Positions 2,719 to 7,117 of a DNA stretch of 7,117 bases are shown piece after piece (within the stretch, counting starts at the first letter, position 1; each line of letters begins with the position of its first letter). The notes beneath the pieces were generated by a model. That model did no database searches. It worked only from the letters and a program-made list of their open reading frames with translations, and was not told the origin of the DNA. The position numbers and the translations under genes were made by a program. Source of the stretch: a virus; IMG/VR virus record IMGVR_UViG_3300011982_000002, positions 1 to 7,117 of that record; one strand, written 5' to 3'.

Positions 2719-3699
2719 ATGAAGTGTTTTAGATTGATTAGGGGAGATACTCTCTCCCCTATCTGTGACTTGCGAAAGTGTAATCCTTTGCTTGCTGCTG
2801 GTATTAGTGCAGGTGCTTCGATATTAGGTGCTAAACTTAACAATGATGCAATAGAGCGTAATAATCAGCGTCAAGAGGGATTAATAAACAAACAGAATAG
2901 TTATAATAATCCTACCGAGCAAGTTGCCCGTATGCGGCAAGCAGGTTTGAACCCTTACATGATGTTAGGACAGGTAAATTCTGGTAATCAGGCTGCTATT
3001 GCTACTACCCAGGCAGGAAATTATGATACGGCTGCAAATGGTGTTGGTAATGCTGTCACACAAGCGCTTACAGCTAAGTTGAATGATAGCACGATAGATC
3101 TGAATAATGCTAATTCACAGAATGCTCATGCTGATGCTGCTTTGAAGCGTGTCGATTTGATTTCGCGTGCTGCTAAAAATGAAGCTGAGATTAATAGTCT
3201 TGTTAAGCAAGGTAAGCTTTCAGAACAGCAGGCAGAGCAATTGCGTTTGCAGAATGATTTAACGCAGTTAACGTGGGATGAGCAGATTAAAAAGCCTGGT
3301 TTAGAGAATGGTGCTTTACTTAGTTCTAATTCTAAGTTGAATGAAGAAACTGTGGCTTTGAAGTTACAGAATGCTATTACTAAAGAGAATGGGAAGAAGA
3401 TTTCTGATGCTCAATTGCGTCTTTTGTCTGCGCAGGTTGTTGATATGTTAGAAAGTGCGAAATTGAAGTCTTCTCAGAATGATTATTATAATATAACTAA
3501 TCCTTTGCAAGGTGCTTTGATTGGTTCTCAAATCGAGGCTAATAAGACATCTTCGCCTATTGGTGCAGTTGTTGGTTCTGTTCGAGATAGTAAGGCTTTT
3601 AAGGCTCTTGTTTCTATTTTTGACGGTGATTTTGGTAAATCTGTAGATTTTTTAAAGTCTCTTGTAGGTTTAGGTGATAAGTCTAATCCGAAAAAGTGA
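2719..3699 (+). CDS. VP2: Minor capsid / DNA pilot protein (Microviridae VP2-like)
   Basis: 326-aa ORF ending at TGA 3697..3699. It has a Gly/Ala-rich hydrophobic segment (LLAAGISAGASILGA) followed by an MRQAGLNPYMMLG block, which I recognise as typical of VP2 pilot proteins. The centre is long, Q/N/A/L-rich and coiled-coil-like. The start is uncertain: ATG 2719, or in-frame TTG 2788 just before the Gly/Ala segment. Confidence 0.8.
   Translation: MKCFRLIRGDTLSPICDLRKCNPLLAAGISAGASILGAKLNNDAIERNNQRQEGLINKQNSYNNPTEQVARMRQAGLNPYMMLGQVNSGNQAAIATTQAGNYDTAANGVGNAVTQALTAKLNDSTIDLNNANSQNAHADAALKRVDLISRAAKNEAEINSLVKQGKLSEQQAEQLRLQNDLTQLTWDEQIKKPGLENGALLSSNSKLNEETVALKLQNAITKENGKKISDAQLRLLSAQVVDMLESAKLKSSQNDYYNITNPLQGALIGSQIEANKTSSPIGAVVGSVRDSKAFKALVSIFDGDFGKSVDFLKSLVGLGDKSNPKK
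2739..2761 (+). other. Perfect 9-bp GC-rich hairpin (t-aggggaga / tactc / tctcccct-a)
   Basis: Pairing is 2739..2747 with 2753..2761 around a 5-nt loop at 2748..2752. No T-run follows, so it is not a canonical terminator. It lies 20 nt after ATG 2719. Confidence 0.6.
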
Positions 3700-3939: not shown

Positions 3940-3970
3940 AGCGTGGCTTCGGCTGCGCTATTTTTGTTTT
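3940..3970 (+). terminator. Intrinsic terminator: 8-bp stem closed by a C(UUCG)G tetraloop, followed by a T-run
   Basis: agcgtggc-ttcg-gctgcgct occupies 3940..3959 and includes two G-U wobbles. It is followed by a-tttttgtttt at 3960..3970. Confidence 0.75.
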
Positions 3971-3971
3971 G

Positions 3972-4000
3972 TTAACAATTAATGTGTTATTGATTGTTAA
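3972..4000. repeat. AT-rich inverted repeat ttaacaat / attgttaa (extendable to about 12 bp)
   Basis: 3972..3979 pairs perfectly with 3993..4000. After a T-G pair at 3980-3992, 3981..3983 pairs with 3989..3991. It lies between the terminator and the TAnnTTTG motif at 4029. Confidence 0.5.
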
Positions 4001-4028
4001 TTTACTTGCATTTGTCGTTATTTTTTCG

Positions 4029-4036
4029 TATCTTTG
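4029..4036 (+). promoter_or_regulatory. Candidate Bacteroidetes-type -7 promoter element (TAnnTTTG = TATCTTTG)
   Basis: Exact match to the TAnnTTTG consensus, 34 nt upstream of ATG 4070. The only upstream TTTG (4011..4014) is closer than the usual -33 spacing, so support is partial. Confidence 0.3.
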
Positions 4037-4069
4037 TATATATAAAAGTTAAACAATAACTAATTGATT

Positions 4070-4258
4070 ATGAAGAAAAGATATTATGTTACTAATGTTG
4101 TGTTGAAAAAAGATGGTGATGGTGAAATCCTGTCTTGGACTTATGCTGGTGTTGATTATTATGCTTTTGGTCCTTTTTATGTTGATCATAAAGGTTATCT
4201 TCATCATTTGTTTGATACTCCTGCTGGTAAGGAGGTTGATGTTAAGATTAAATATTGA
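4070..4258 (+). CDS. Hypothetical small protein (62 aa)
   Basis: The track ORF 4064..4258 begins at TTG. ATG 4070 gives MKKRYYVTNVVLKKDGDGEILSWTYAGVDYYAFGPFYVDHKGYLHHLFDTPAGKEVDVKIKY, ending at TGA 4256..4258. The composition is balanced and looks non-artefactual. No family recognised. Confidence 0.55.
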   Translation: MKKRYYVTNVVLKKDGDGEILSWTYAGVDYYAFGPFYVDHKGYLHHLFDTPAGKEVDVKIKY

Positions 4259-4262
4259 ATTT

Positions 4263-4505
4263 ATGGATACGATTTTTTTGAGTGATGATTTTAAAGGTGT
4301 TAAATCTTTTTGTGCGCGTGTTGGTTTTGCCTTTTCAAAATGGCAAGTTGATAATTATTATTTTGATGTAGAGGTTGCAGTTGAAAATGGTGTTTATGTG
4401 GATTTGAGAATTTTTGACCCTTATCAAAATGTATTTCATGGTTATGTTAATCCTGATGGATGGTCAAATTGGCTTTTGGATAATGTAGATGAAGATTGTG
4501 AGTGA
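4263..4505 (+). CDS. Hypothetical small acidic protein (80 aa)
   Basis: An internal ATG at 4263 of track ORF 4113..4505 gives MDTIFLSDDFKGVKSF...LLDNVDEDCE. It starts 4 nt after the preceding stop. The upstream 50 codons overlap the 4070 ORF and look like T-rich off-frame translation. Confidence 0.55.
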   Translation: MDTIFLSDDFKGVKSFCARVGFAFSKWQVDNYYFDVEVAVENGVYVDLRIFDPYQNVFHGYVNPDGWSNWLLDNVDEDCE

Positions 4506-4526
4506 TTTTCTTGTTTTTATCTATTT

Positions 4527-4558
4527 AAAGGGTGTGATTAATCACACCTTTTTTTTTT
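4527..4558 (+). terminator. Strong intrinsic terminator (ggtgtga-ttaa-tcacacc followed by T10, preceded by AAA)
   Basis: Perfect palindrome at 4531..4548, then ten consecutive T at 4549..4558. It lies 22 nt after the stop at 4503..4505. Confidence 0.8.
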
Positions 4559-4800
4559 GCTGTAATGGCGTATGCCCATCGACGGGGGTATAGGGGGCAG
4601 CATTGCCCCCATAGCGATAGCACAAATAAACGAAGTGGTTAAATGGACGCCCGAAAGCGTAGAGAGGTACGAACGTAGCTTATGCGTCCGAGTTGTAGCT
4701 TTAGCGAAAACGACCCTATAAAAACCTTATTATTAATAGTTTATGATATTTTCAGTTTCCGAGTAATCGGCGTGCGCCCTCCGTGCCACGTACTTTACCT
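4559..4800. other. GC-rich, hairpin-dense non-coding island (candidate ssDNA replication/priming element or structured RNA)
   Basis: My hand count gives 81 G+C in the 160 nt of 4561..4720, against 48 of 160 in 4061..4220. No ORF of 60 aa or more exists on either strand. Hairpins: 4565..4579, 4593..4610 (7 GC-rich bp), 4645..4650 with 4684..4689, and 4759..4770 (ccga-GUAA-tcgg). Confidence 0.5.
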
Positions 4801-4818
4801 CTTGATATATATTGTAAA
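4794..4818 (+). other. Candidate plus-strand origin nick site: CTTGATA in the 15-nt loop of a short hairpin
   Basis: tttac (4794..4798) pairs with gtaaa (4814..4818). The loop is ctcttgatatatatt. cctcttgata (4798..4807) matches 8 of 10 positions of the phiX174 ori decamer CAACTTGATA as I recall it. Confidence 0.2.
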
Positions 4819-4895
4819 ACTGACAGCTATCAAATAGACTTAAACTCCTTATTTCTGTAAAATATGTTAAAAAATAATTTATCATACTATATATT

Positions 4896-5348
4896 ATGTC
4901 ATTTTTTTATTATATTTGCAGAAAAATAATTGTTATTATGGTAGATTTCAATATTTCTAAACATTTTACTTATCTTGAGATGTGTTTTACTCGTACATCT
5001 TTTGATAATCTGTGTGTAAACCCTTTTTATATTACAAATCTTGTTCGTTTGTGTGATGTTCTTGAGATTATTCGTGACGCTGTAGGTAAACCTATTCATG
5101 TAAATTCTGCTTATCGTTCAATTCGTGTCAATCATGCTGTTGGCGGTGTTCTTACTTCTGATCATCTTTATGGTTTTGCTGCAGATATTTATGTTGATAA
5201 TATGTCTTCTTTGGATTTGTTTAATTTGATTAAGTCTGTTCATACTAAGGTTGGTATTGATTTTGGTCAGGTTATAAGATATAAAACTTTTGTTCATGTG
5301 TCTATCAATGTTGAAAGACATAAGAATGAATTTTTTGAGAAATTATAG
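4896..5348 (+). CDS. Zinc D-Ala-D-Ala carboxypeptidase-like peptidase, M15 family (Peptidase_M15_3-like); probable endolysin
   Basis: Motifs: ISKHFTYLE near the N-terminus, SAYRSIRVNHAVGG, an H-x6-D zinc-ligand motif SDHLYGFAAD (5163..5186), and a C-terminal FVHVS with His at 5295..5297. Stop is TAG 5346..5348. ATG 4938 (MVDFNISKHF..., 136 aa) is an equally plausible start. Confidence 0.85.
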   Translation: MSFFYYICRKIIVIMVDFNISKHFTYLEMCFTRTSFDNLCVNPFYITNLVRLCDVLEIIRDAVGKPIHVNSAYRSIRVNHAVGGVLTSDHLYGFAADIYVDNMSSLDLFNLIKSVHTKVGIDFGQVIRYKTFVHVSINVERHKNEFFEKL

Positions 5349-5371: not shown

Positions 5372-7117
5372 GTGCATCCTCTTGTTGAATTAGTAAAGGA
5401 AAAAGAAGTATTATTGCCTTGTGAAGATCCTGTGATTGTTGAAAACAATGGTAGGAAATATGCTGTTCCTTGTGGTAAATGTATGCTCTGTCTGGAGCGA
5501 AAGGCCAATATCTGGCGCACTCGTTTACGCCAGGAATGTAAGGATAATAAATATTGTATTTTCTTTACGCTTACTTACGATAATTTACATGTTCCATTTT
5601 TTAGACCTGCTGAAGACGCTGACTGTTATATACTCGATGATGCGCAAGGATATAGATTTCAAGGCGATGATGAAACTTCTTATTCGAAAAGATTGTCTGT
5701 TCGTGGTTCGCTTTGTCGCGTTTATACACCTCGTGTCACCAATTTTGACGTTTGTAATTCTTTTGCTGTTGTATCTCGTGTTGATGTTCAAAAGTTCATG
5801 AAGCGTTTTCGCTGGCATTTACAAAATTTATTGACTTGTCATTATAAATTGAAGTTTTATGATAAGTTGTTTTCTTTCACTTATAGTTTAGGTTATGACG
5901 GTAAGGTTCCGTTTGCTGAATGGTTAAGTGATTTGGATGATGAAAGTTATGATTTGTATTATCAGATTTATAAATATTATTTATTGAAGTATGAAAAGGA
6001 AAAGAAACAAGCTAAACAAGTTACGCGCTACTTCATCTGCAGCGAGTACACCCCTACTACATTTAGACCTCACTACCATGGTTTGTTTTGGTTTGACAAT
6101 GAAAAGGCGTACAAATTTGCCTTTCGGTGTATATACAAGGCTTGGCAGATGTGTGATAAAAGGAATATCGACGTTCAACCTGTCACAGGTGGAGACGCTT
6201 ACTCCTATGTATCGAAATATGTTACTGGCAATCTTAATCTGCCAGAAGTTTTACGCGTTAAATCTACCCGCACATTCAGTCTGGCTTCTAAAAACCCAGC
6301 TATCGGCTATAAGTCGTATGATGCGGACAAAGTACAAGGATTGTTCAACCGACAGAATATATTCAGATGTGATGTCACAGTTACACGGGACGGCCAACAG
6401 TCTTTTGTTTCCGTTGTTCCCCCGTGTGTTGTATCTCGATATTTCCCAAAGTGTTACCGCTATGGCACGTTATCTGATATGGATAAATTACGTGTATATA
6501 CGCGATTTATCAAGCTTTCAAGAGTCAATGGAGTTGAGAGAGTAGACGTTGATGCTTCCTTGGCATGTCTGAAATGGTATAAAGATAATACGTTGCTTTA
6601 TTCCAAGCGTGCAGAAGATGAACTCGGAGATAGTTATAATGCTGAACAGTCCTGGTTTCATTCTGCGGATGTCAATGCGGCCCGTGCGTGTTTGAATTGG
6701 TGTATTAGGTATAATTGTCACCCCTCGCATTATATGTGCATGCTGGATTGGTTTTGGAAAGAATATGCGATGTACAATCTTTATCAGCAGTATCATTTTG
6801 TGGATAAGCTTTCGCGTATTTTTGTTTGGAAAGGTGATGAAGTCTATAAAGAAAATTGTGATGTCAAGTTGTTTGATGTTCAGATGTGTCTTGACCCCGT
6901 TTTTTTACGTGAATTGCCTTTATATCTTGATGATGCAGTTTTGGATGATGATATTTGTTCGATTGTCGAGAGTTATGGAATGGATATATCTTCGTTCTAT
7001 GATATTCACGGTATGTTGTCTGAGGATGTCGTGCGTCAATTCTATGAGTATAATATGAAGCATTTTACGGATTATCGAAGTCGTGCTTATGATAATTTGA
7101 AGCTTGCTAACAAGTCA
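5372..7117 (+). CDS. VP4: Rolling-circle replication initiator (Microviridae VP4 / gpA-like HUH endonuclease), truncated by linearisation and continuing at 1..138
   Basis: I translated this frame codon by codon. It is open from 5339 to 7117 with no stop and is absent from the ORF track. Motifs: PCEDP...VPCGKCMLCLERK, motif I FFTLTYD (5561..5581), HUH motif HYH in RPHYHGLFWF (6071..6079), and a double-tyrosine motif YVSKY (6206..6220) like phiX174 gpA YVAKY. The start is GTG 5372 (594 aa in total) or TTG 5414 (580 aa, giving M-P-C-E-D-P). The first ATG is at 5483. Confidence 0.9.
   Translation, partial: MHPLVELVKEKEVLLPCEDPVIVENNGRKYAVPCGKCMLCLERKANIWRTRLRQECKDNKYCIFFTLTYDNLHVPFFRPAEDADCYILDDAQGYRFQGDDETSYSKRLSVRGSLCRVYTPRVTNFDVCNSFAVVSRVDVQKFMKRFRWHLQNLLTCHYKLKFYDKLFSFTYSLGYDGKVPFAEWLSDLDDESYDLYYQIYKYYLLKYEKEKKQAKQVTRYFICSEYTPTTFRPHYHGLFWFDNEKAYKFAFRCIYKAWQMCDKRNIDVQPVTGGDAYSYVSKYVTGNLNLPEVLRVKSTRTFSLASKNPAIGYKSYDADKVQGLFNRQNIFRCDVTVTRDGQQSFVSVVPPCVVSRYFPKCYRYGTLSDMDKLRVYTRFIKLSRVNGVERVDVDASLACLKWYKDNTLLYSKRAEDELGDSYNAEQSWFHSADVNAARACLNWCIRYNCHPSHYMCMLDWFWKEYAMYNLYQQYHFVDKLSRIFVWKGDEVYKENCDVKLFDVQMCLDPVFLRELPLYLDDAVLDDDICSIVESYGMDISSFYDIHGMLSEDVVRQFYEYNMKHFTDYRSRAYDNLKLANKS
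7019..7117. repeat. Terminal direct repeat, copy 2 (identical to 1..99)
   Basis: Exact 99-nt identity with the window start. Confidence 0.95.

Follow-up and report, generated by a model that had tools for sequence, protein, structure and literature searches.

A structured element in the intergenic region of a microvirus genome

The stretch of DNA analysed here (the window) comprises all 7,117 nucleotides of the virus record IMGVR_UViG_3300011982_000002, one strand read 5' to 3', and is a Microviridae genome. A terminal direct repeat of 99 nt (1-99 and 7019-7117) marks the 7117-nt window as complete and circular, with a genome of about 7018 nt in which every gene lies on the + strand. Its sole long non-coding stretch (4506-4937) holds a GC-rich island at 4559-4800 that an earlier sequence-only reading had singled out as dense in hairpins. 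We find that 4584-4716 of this island, termed module 1, is part of a conserved structured element of about 135 bases that is absent from Rfam and that is carried by Prevotella plasmids and integrative mobilisable elements (IMEs) as well. Plausibly, it is a signal by which the host starts complementary-strand synthesis on single-stranded DNA in Prevotellaceae. The features of the genome, with those of the island in full, are as follows.

161-2260, + strand: major capsid protein (MCP) gene, Phage_F
+ strand: gene for a 150-aa protein
2719-3699, + strand: pilot protein gene
+ strand: two small open reading frames (ORFs)
4527..4558, + strand: terminator-like hairpin (11 bp followed by T10) that closes the upstream gene block and forms the left border of a swappable cassette
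4559..4583, + strand: 5' flank of the cassette, in which atggc/gcccat can form a small hairpin at 4565-4579; atggcgtatgcccatcga also lies 5' of the element in the plasmid-like contig L041 and is absent from the related microvirus L001
4584..4623, + strand: near-invariant 40-nt core (S5), made up of the G5 run at 4584-4588, helix P2, and then ATAGCG..AGCAC with helix P2'
P2, + strand: TAT 4589-4591, bulged A4592, GGGGGC 4593-4598; loop 4599-4604; GCCCCC 4605-4610, ATA 4611-4613
P2', + strand: 2-bp mini-hairpin, G4614-C4621 and C4615-G4620
4624..4644, + strand: linker that ends in the conserved GGTTAAAT (4637-4644)
4645..4689, + strand: long hairpin P3, with outer stem GGACGC 4645-4650/GCGTCC 4684-4689 and inner stem AAGC 4655-4658/GCTT 4678-4681
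4690..4716, + strand: 3' tail, GAGTTG...AGCGAAAACGA and then CCC; the right border of the swapped cassette falls at 4714/4715
4717..4752, + strand: AT-rich spacer, variable in length among relatives (18% GC over 4715-4758)
4753..4794, + strand: module 2, microvirus-specific, with the conserved CAGTTTCC (4753-4760) and hairpins H4 and H5
H4, + strand: 4759-4762 with 4767-4770
H5, + strand: 4771-4774 with 4787-4790, around a conserved 12-nt loop CGCCCTCCGTGC at 4775-4786
4799..4826, + strand: candidate plus-strand (Rep) origin CTCTTGATAT...AAAACTGACAG (CTCTTGATATATATTGTAAAACTGACAG), conserved in at least 20 microviral loci
4911..4918, + strand: Bacteroidota-type -7 promoter box TATATTTG (TAnnTTTG), which serves the M15 peptidase gene
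+ strand: M15 peptidase gene, with its start at ATG 4896 in the ORF list and more likely at ATG 4938
5372 across the junction to about position 138, + strand: Rep ORF

All of the sequence features that the sequence-only reading had listed for the island are present where it had placed them. The abrupt rise in G+C holds, with 47.5% for 4559-4800 rather than the hand-counted value of about 51%; this is the top 242-nt window of a genome with a mean of 37%, beaten by none of 688 such windows. The T-richness of the strand is indeed lost (25% T vs 44-45% in both flanks). The island had been treated as a single unit, but it is bipartite in G+C, with 51.9% over 4559-4714, 18% in the spacer at 4715-4758 and 61.9% over 4759-4800, and it consists of two modules, the second of which (4753-4794) is specific to microviruses and adjoins a probable plus-strand origin.

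Pairing in module 1 is maintained by compensatory change

When both strands of the whole island were folded as RNA and as DNA, the energies were no better than those of dinucleotide shuffles (Z of +0.15, +0.53 and -0.91 for RNA or DNA folding of either strand), and support for folding therefore rests on the comparison of relatives. A covariance model was built from 14 phage and prophage copies, and it recovered every locus that bears the core pattern described below. The structure that was tested, which adds two helices missing from this model, was scored on 105 matches, 90 of them distinct. Among these 90 distinct copies, 95.1% of cells were paired, compared with 40-58% when the 3' partners were slid by 1-3 columns. 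Compensatory changes were found at 16 of 27 pairs and in 97 cells, as against 7-16 cells in the slid controls, and no shuffle reached the observed values.

The individual helices share in this pattern. The hairpin that had been proposed at 4593-4610 is backed by the comparative data and extends to a 9-bp stem (TAT, a bulged A, and GGGGGC), in which the extension pair is A:T in 68 copies and G:C in 21, and the first pair of P2' is G:C in 63 and A:T in 26. The proposed pairing of 4645-4650 with 4684-4689, which is the outer stem of P3, is likewise borne out, with compensatory changes at all seven pairs (for example GTGCGC/GCGCAC, GCGCGC, and AGGGCT/AGCCCT). For the inner stem, the alignment favours AAGC 4655-4658 with GCTT 4678-4681 in place of the cgta/tacg pairing suggested before, and its five pairs all covary even though the covariance model had not fitted them. 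The internal loop of P3 starts with a conserved CCGA, and G.T wobble pairs are nearly missing from the well-supported stems. Taken across relatives, these changes show that the element has kept its predicted single-stranded fold, with its pairing maintained in evolution.

Other parts of the earlier description are particular to the window. Neither the 12-nt direct repeat nor the two similar boundary motifs are kept as repeats in relatives, and the hairpin at 4565-4579, which is present in the window, recurs solely in L041. The first G5 run (4584-4588) is invariant among copies and so supplies no covariation for the alternative pairing proposed for it earlier. A long-range helix between this run and the C-run at 4714-4716 (P1, predicted by RNAalifold) was rejected, with no compensatory change and up to 17 unpaired; P1 is missing from L005, L008, L020, and the copies of the L026 type described below. 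Searches of the Rfam covariance models gave no match in the window at E<=1 and, in 8 host loci searched at E<=0.1, none that falls on the element, and a tRNA/tmRNA search of the window found none.

The element is shared by microviruses and Prevotella mobile elements

A BLASTN search against phage records found about 40 nt of the island (4577-4626) at roughly 90% identity in 13 divergent microviruses, always in unannotated DNA. Scanning for the core pattern (G4-5 / YATA / GGGGRC-loop-GYCCCC / ATARCG-N2-4-AGYAC) recovered 15 IMG/VR contigs, 21 contigs from genomes in GTDB, at least 120 contigs from metagenomes, and seven complete plasmids of cultured species, all seven from Prevotella. The host range of the element is narrow, with the genome matches almost all from Prevotellaceae. 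Microviruses that carry it include some whose MCP is only 20-63% identical to that of the window. In 28 of 28 scored microviral loci it is co-oriented with the genes and is therefore on the packaged strand.

Outside of phages, the element keeps company with mobilisation genes. The plasmids that carry it belong to P. nigrescens, P. corporis, P. denticola, and P. veroralis, are 4.1-7.9 kb in size, and each have an annotated replication initiation protein; L041 encodes a Rep_3 initiator. In the complete Prevotella plasmids, the mobilisation gene and the element are divergent, with the element a short way upstream. Among the metagenome matches listed (n=122), 77 copies are on contigs with a relaxase gene, nine are microviral, and for 36 neither was detected, many of these being at contig ends. 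In 72 of the 77 relaxase-bearing contigs among those matches, the opposite strand has the relaxase start no more than 700 nt upstream; the remaining five share this strand relation at a greater distance, which circular permutation of the contig could explain. Spacing depends on the relaxase family, at about 190-230 or 395-450 nt for MobA/VirD2-like proteins, about 629 nt for a second PF03432 family, and 542 nt for Mob_Pre, and relaxases merely 33-38% identical to each other adjoin near-identical cores. The integrative elements that hold the chromosomal copies combine an integrase either with DUF3853, DUF6043, a DnaC-like ATPase, and a DnaD-like protein or with primases.

Two further observations concern copy number and location. 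The metagenomic contig L059 carries three copies of the element, and L062, L086, L087, and L112 carry two each; such contigs may be composite or multimeric mobile elements. Microvirus genes together with the element were also found on long bacterial contigs, L028 (Prevotella sp. SGI.027, 59 kb) and L029 (41 kb), which are probable proviruses.

Module 1 behaves as an exchangeable cassette

The search for related loci by Rep yielded one close relative. Microvirus D_HF5_96 (OR149003, L001) matches the window at 90-93% identity along most of its length, with a Rep that is 93% identical. Identity between the two is present over 4530-4558, ends right after the terminator, and resumes at CCTATAAA; between these abrupt junctions, 4559-4714 of the window is replaced in L001 by an unrelated 128-nt GC-rich sequence (L001 4261-4388). 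This replacement recurs at 74% identity in OR148991 (L009, about 3949-4073), has its own hairpin (GCATCC/GGATGC), and shares with module 1 just short motifs such as AAGCGAGCTTGCGA. It had no plasmid match and no covariance-model match, and the model found nothing at E<=1 in L001 or in its nearest relatives, the microviruses L009 and L046, which are thus without the element too. The cassette of L001 and L009 may represent another family within the functional class of module 1.

The absence of 4559-4714 from a near-identical genome is an outcome that the sequence-only reading had counted against a function for the island. In this case, the cause is cassette exchange and not drift. The suggestion of a horizontally acquired insert holds to the extent that the cassette is common to Prevotella plasmids and IMEs and is swapped in a phage that is otherwise 90-93% identical. 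Module 1 was also considered as the Rep (plus-strand) origin and rejected, because a 93% identical Rep occurs with an unrelated cassette and because elements other than phages carry module 1. Together, the comparisons show module 1 behaving as an exchangeable cassette, independent of the phage Rep and of the relaxase family.

Equivalent terminator hairpins are found 5' of the element in L002, L003, L006, L007, L011, L019, and L020. Just 5' of the terminator, a second block is dissimilar between the two genomes (window 4063-4529 vs L001 3948-4231), and by its alignment is another swapped accessory cassette. Within this block, the ORF at 4113-4505 (130 aa, without a family match) stands out against the otherwise 90% identical L001.

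Module 2 adjoins a candidate plus-strand origin

Module 2 is kept in L001 and L009, which have no module 1. When seven phages were aligned by plain MAFFT, pairing extended to 98% of the cells of this module, compared with 21-45% after sliding, and six of eight pairs had compensatory changes. The hairpin noticed earlier at 4759-4770 is supported in its stem, but the GNRA loop ascribed to it is not kept, as gtaa, ttaa, gtca, and atta all occur. Module 2 lies just 5' of the phiX174-origin-like motif CTTGATAT and probably belongs to the plus-strand origin.

The start of the candidate origin at 4799-4826 resembles the 30-nt origin of phiX174/G4, CAACTTGATATTAATAAC (which begins CAACTTGATAT), and CTTGAYAT has four matches in the window against 0.78 expected. 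The phiX174 30-mer is located at 4299-4328, inside gene A, and the candidate in the window is intergenic and not inside the rep gene. On this similarity, 4799-4826 is probably the Rep nick region, with a nick position presumed from the known origins. In that case, module 1 would precede this region by about 85-215 nt.

Downstream of the candidate origin, boxes like TATATTTG occur at the equivalent place in L002, L003, L005, L008, and L020. A TAnnTTTG box ahead of the M15 peptidase gene points to a host among the Bacteroidota. The position of this box, at 4911-4918, and the start of the homologue in L001 both point to ATG 4938 rather than ATG 4896 as the start of the peptidase.

Relaxases and nic-like motifs next to the element

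The proteins encoded next to the element include a 597-aa protein in the L026 type and a 483-aa protein in L039, for which Pfam, NCBIfam, PHROGs, and PDB sequence searches were empty. BLASTP joined them with other neighbour proteins into one family over the N-terminal 200-270 residues. Pfam Relaxase (PF03432) was matched by three proteins, those of L048 and L050, which are of this family, and the relaxase of L041, which BLASTP did not link to the L048/L050 family and which we treated as a second PF03432 family. The first family has 436 homologues at E<=1e-5; no Pfam domain and no informative name is attached to any of them, the few with a name being called 'hypothetical protein'. Because of the BLASTP linkage to plasmid mob proteins, this large unannotated Prevotella family is assigned as a MobA/VirD2-like relaxase from sequence relationships. 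PLSDB types all seven of the element-bearing Prevotella plasmids as 'non-mobilizable', but at least four of them (L047-L050) encode the relaxase family. The members of the family and the candidate nic sites are as follows.

L026 581-2374, - strand: relaxase family member
L039 4789-6240, + strand: relaxase family member
L047 1327-2697, - strand: relaxase family member
L048 3338-4558, - strand: relaxase family member
L050 2759-3661, - strand: relaxase family member
Candidate nic sites ATAACCTG(C/T), (C/T)ATCCTGC, and GCTACC(T/A)G: at about 4640-4695 in L048; about 150 nt upstream of the element in L053, L093, L109, and L112; about 120-150 nt upstream in the L026 type

Each relaxase family has its own inverted repeat and nic-like motif between the gene and the element, the motifs being ...GTGGGCTATAACCTG(C/T), ...GTGTGCTACC(T/A)G, and (C/T)ATCCTGC, the last of which we take to be the IncP/Ti-type nic consensus. 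Such motifs occur within 300 nt upstream in 62 of 120 non-phage copies vs none of 28 phage copies, with a random expectation of 5.4%. If they are nic sites, about 75-200 nt of the transferred strand would enter the recipient ahead of the element. The sequence of the RSF1010 origin of transfer (oriT) and its orientation relative to mobA were checked in PLSDB, and the two systems share a geometry in which an antisense mob gene is followed by an inverted repeat and then by a conserved stretch. By this analogy, the element is predicted to be on the transferred strand, just 3' of the family-specific nic-like motifs. No relaxase is encoded by the window or by the other microviruses, as seen from the proteins of the window and the loci compared by MCP.

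A candidate signal for complementary-strand synthesis

Module 1 has a fixed strand, it occurs in two kinds of replicon that both arrive in single-stranded form, it is independent of the initiator, it behaves as a cassette, and it is confined to a single host clade. These properties lead us to propose, with moderate confidence, that it is a single-strand initiation signal (ssi) recognised by the host for complementary-strand synthesis in Prevotellaceae. The packaged plus strand would fold module 1 into the conserved set of hairpins, and a Prevotella host factor would recognise these and start complementary-strand synthesis, thereby converting the incoming circle into the double-stranded replicative form. 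In plasmids and integrative elements, the element would do the same job from the very start of the strand predicted to enter the recipient. A complementary-strand origin like those of G4 and phiX174 had been offered by the sequence-only reading, and it is the best-supported reading for 4584-4716, in which we infer the action as DNA and not RNA, the priming role, and the identity of the enzyme. Candidates for the host factor are primase, a PriA primosome, and RNA polymerase. The element contains no mimic of a Bacteroidota promoter, which makes primase or a PriA-type primosome the better guess.

Several observations weigh against this proposal. The folding energy of module 1 is no better than that of dinucleotide shuffles (Z of -1.35 and -0.97). 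The version with RNA polymerase is at odds with the lack of a TAnnTTTG box inside the element of the window, where the nearest sense box is 326 nt downstream. The plasmids with the element have Rep_3 (theta-type) initiators and would need the signal solely after transfer. The L026 type, which is the commonest chromosomal (IME) form, has the 40-nt core alone without P3, and its conservation stops abruptly after AGTACC. The polarity of transfer in Prevotella plasmids was inferred from RSF1010 and RP4. In one small clade (L014 and L023), a good Bacteroidota box (TACATTTG / TATTTTTG) is 25 nt 5' of the element, and these copies, unlike most, may be transcribed. Finally, a function in the relaxosome or in transfer could likewise explain the tight linkage to relaxases and the very high conservation of the 40-nt core.

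Such a function could take the form of an oriT or of a site for a relaxosome or coupling protein, with the phage replicative form mobilised in trans or recombining at a plasmid oriT. The constant position upstream of and divergent from relaxase genes suits this explanation, as does an inverted repeat followed by a conserved single-stranded stretch antisense to mob, which is the geometry of the RSF1010 oriT, and the halt of conservation right after AGTACC in the L026 type is as expected at a nick or recombination point. In addition, GTGCGCCC in P3 resembles what we take to be the core of the MOBQ nic site, but it is not conserved, the window having GGACGCCC and others AGGGCTGC. Relaxase-less elements with borrowed oriTs are known (PMC5704250). 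Nevertheless, we regard a transfer-related role as unlikely, since one core goes with three relaxase families and with relaxases down to about 33% identity, a family-specific inverted repeat and nic-like motif (ATAACCTG, GCTACCWG, YATCCTG) stand between gene and element, such motifs are found in none of the 28 phage copies, and a covarying structure of several helices goes beyond the needs of an oriT. It is similarly improbable, perhaps somewhat more so, that the shared core is recognised by Prevotella relaxosomes or coupling proteins so that the phage replicative form is nicked and shipped through the conjugative pore as a plus strand. If true, the plus strand would arrive like an injected genome, and the phage would gain a receptor-independent way to spread.

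The strong covariation and fixed orientation that suggest an initiation signal would suit a structured non-coding RNA of phages and plasmids equally, whether a small RNA or a cis-regulatory leader (for example in anti-defence or copy control). In phages and several plasmids, the gene downstream has the orientation of the element, and L014 and L023 have the TAnnTTTG box mentioned above. Even so, we consider an RNA improbable. No Rfam family matches even at E<=1, a strong terminator lies directly upstream with the next promoter 200-330 nt downstream, and downstream of the element there is no terminator. Of 43 distinct copies, 40 have no TAnnTTTG box in the 100 nt upstream (three have one), the L026-type element is antisense to all of its flanking genes, and in L039 it sits between divergent promoters. 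It has no constant relation to rep genes, and G.U pairs are almost missing from the supported stems. The setting of the element is apparently untranscribed, and an independent small RNA was rejected as there is no consistent promoter upstream. Of the possibilities raised by the sequence-only reading, a structured RNA is thus the least supported, with no Rfam match, a site between terminator and promoter, and a promoter box in just three of 43 copies.

It is also very unlikely that the element is a passenger, a plasmid-derived fragment with no function in the phage. The closest relatives live without it and its horizontal exchange is clear, but it keeps the same genomic position, strand, and compensatory changes across microviruses whose capsid proteins are 20-60% identical, and where relatives are without it, the site is not empty but occupied by a different GC-rich cassette. 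The explanation to which we give the least credence is a folded single-stranded recombination site, like the attP of CTX phage or the attC of integrons, used by XerC/D of the host or by some other recombinase. Microviruses of Bacteroidales can exist as proviruses, and a use of dif-like sites 5' of rep has been proposed for them (PMC3091885). This precedent favours such a site, as do the conserved extrahelical A in P2, cassette junctions that match the borders of the element, and the microvirus sequences on long Prevotella contigs (L028 and L029). Set against it, no dif-like 28-mer was recognised in module 1, most of the element-bearing plasmids are without an integrase, and none of the loci compared has a provirus flanked by two copies.

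Few phages of the human gut and mouth are as common as the microviruses that infect Bacteroidota, and we know of no complementary-strand origin for them. As an initiation signal, module 1 would provide a candidate that is concrete and testable. Its sharing with plasmids and integrative elements points to a common, host-specific establishment step for any incoming single-stranded DNA in this clade. The element may further serve as a marker of Prevotellaceae hosts for uncultured microviruses, gives a handle on a large unannotated relaxase family, and is a candidate vector part for Prevotella, which is notoriously hard to manipulate genetically. Literature searches by sequence string, by Microviridae with oriT, and by Prevotella plasmid oriT found no earlier description of it, and the main texts of the S. 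copri RNA atlas and of a survey of structured RNAs in the microbiome do not mention it.

Comparison with known systems

In many rolling-circle replicons, the single-strand origin (sso) lies upstream of the leading-strand origin (dso), and the placement of module 1 before the candidate plus-strand origin would match this layout. Like ssoA, ssoU, ssoT, and ssoW (pT181, pMV158), the element is non-coding, of similar size (about 135-160 nt), and predicted to fold on the displaced or entering strand. The sso elements are about 160 nt long, orientation-dependent, host-restricted, exchangeable as cassettes with abrupt junctions, and independent of Rep (PMC5703833), and the fixed strand, host restriction, interchangeability, and Rep independence of the element, as seen in its copies, resemble these properties. 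The differences are that the two have no sequence relationship, that the hosts are Bacteroidota in place of Firmicutes, and that the element has no mimic of a host promoter. The conserved RSB of ssoA is 5'-TTTATGCCGAGAAAA-3' (PMC6395029), and it has no match in the window with up to three mismatches. Two copies of the CS-6 hexamer, TAGCGA at 4612 and 4702, lie in module 1, neither of them in a terminal loop of the supported structure, and genome-wide TAGCG(A/T) has three matches vs 5.1 expected. Membership in the ssoA family was rejected, with RSB absent and CS-6 not enriched.

The folded promoters of conjugation and filamentous phages, and the oriTs, offer looser parallels. Frpo and the M13/f1 minus origin are folded ssDNA promoters that start RNA primers, as described in a passage of PMC11541004, and like the element they are folded single-stranded DNA in the leading region of transferred DNA or on the plus strand of a phage. 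Their defining promoter mimic (TTTG and TAnnTTTG boxes in a stem) was looked for in the element and not found. The MOBQ/MOBP oriTs (RSF1010, RP4) resemble the element of plasmids and IMEs in lying upstream of and divergent from relaxase genes. They differ in that the element is common to three relaxase families, with separate nic-like motifs nearer to the genes, and is found in phages that have neither relaxase nor nic-like motif.

The closest parallel in phages is with the G4 oric and the phiX174 primosome-assembly site, which are intergenic hairpin clusters on the viral strand, read there by host enzymes. No sequence or model similarity to these was detectable, and the 40-nt core is far more conserved than expected for a purely structural signal. 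Signals of the G4 type are shared by Microviridae and the plasmids F, R6K, R100, and ColE2, according to a passage of PMC11541004 that cites Nomura 1991 and Masai & Arai 1997. By analogy with these systems, the element may well be the Prevotellaceae counterpart of the sso and ssi signals of rolling-circle plasmids, of G4 and phiX174, and of F-type plasmids, a known functional class in which the element family, its structure, and its sharing between microviruses and Prevotella elements appear to be new.

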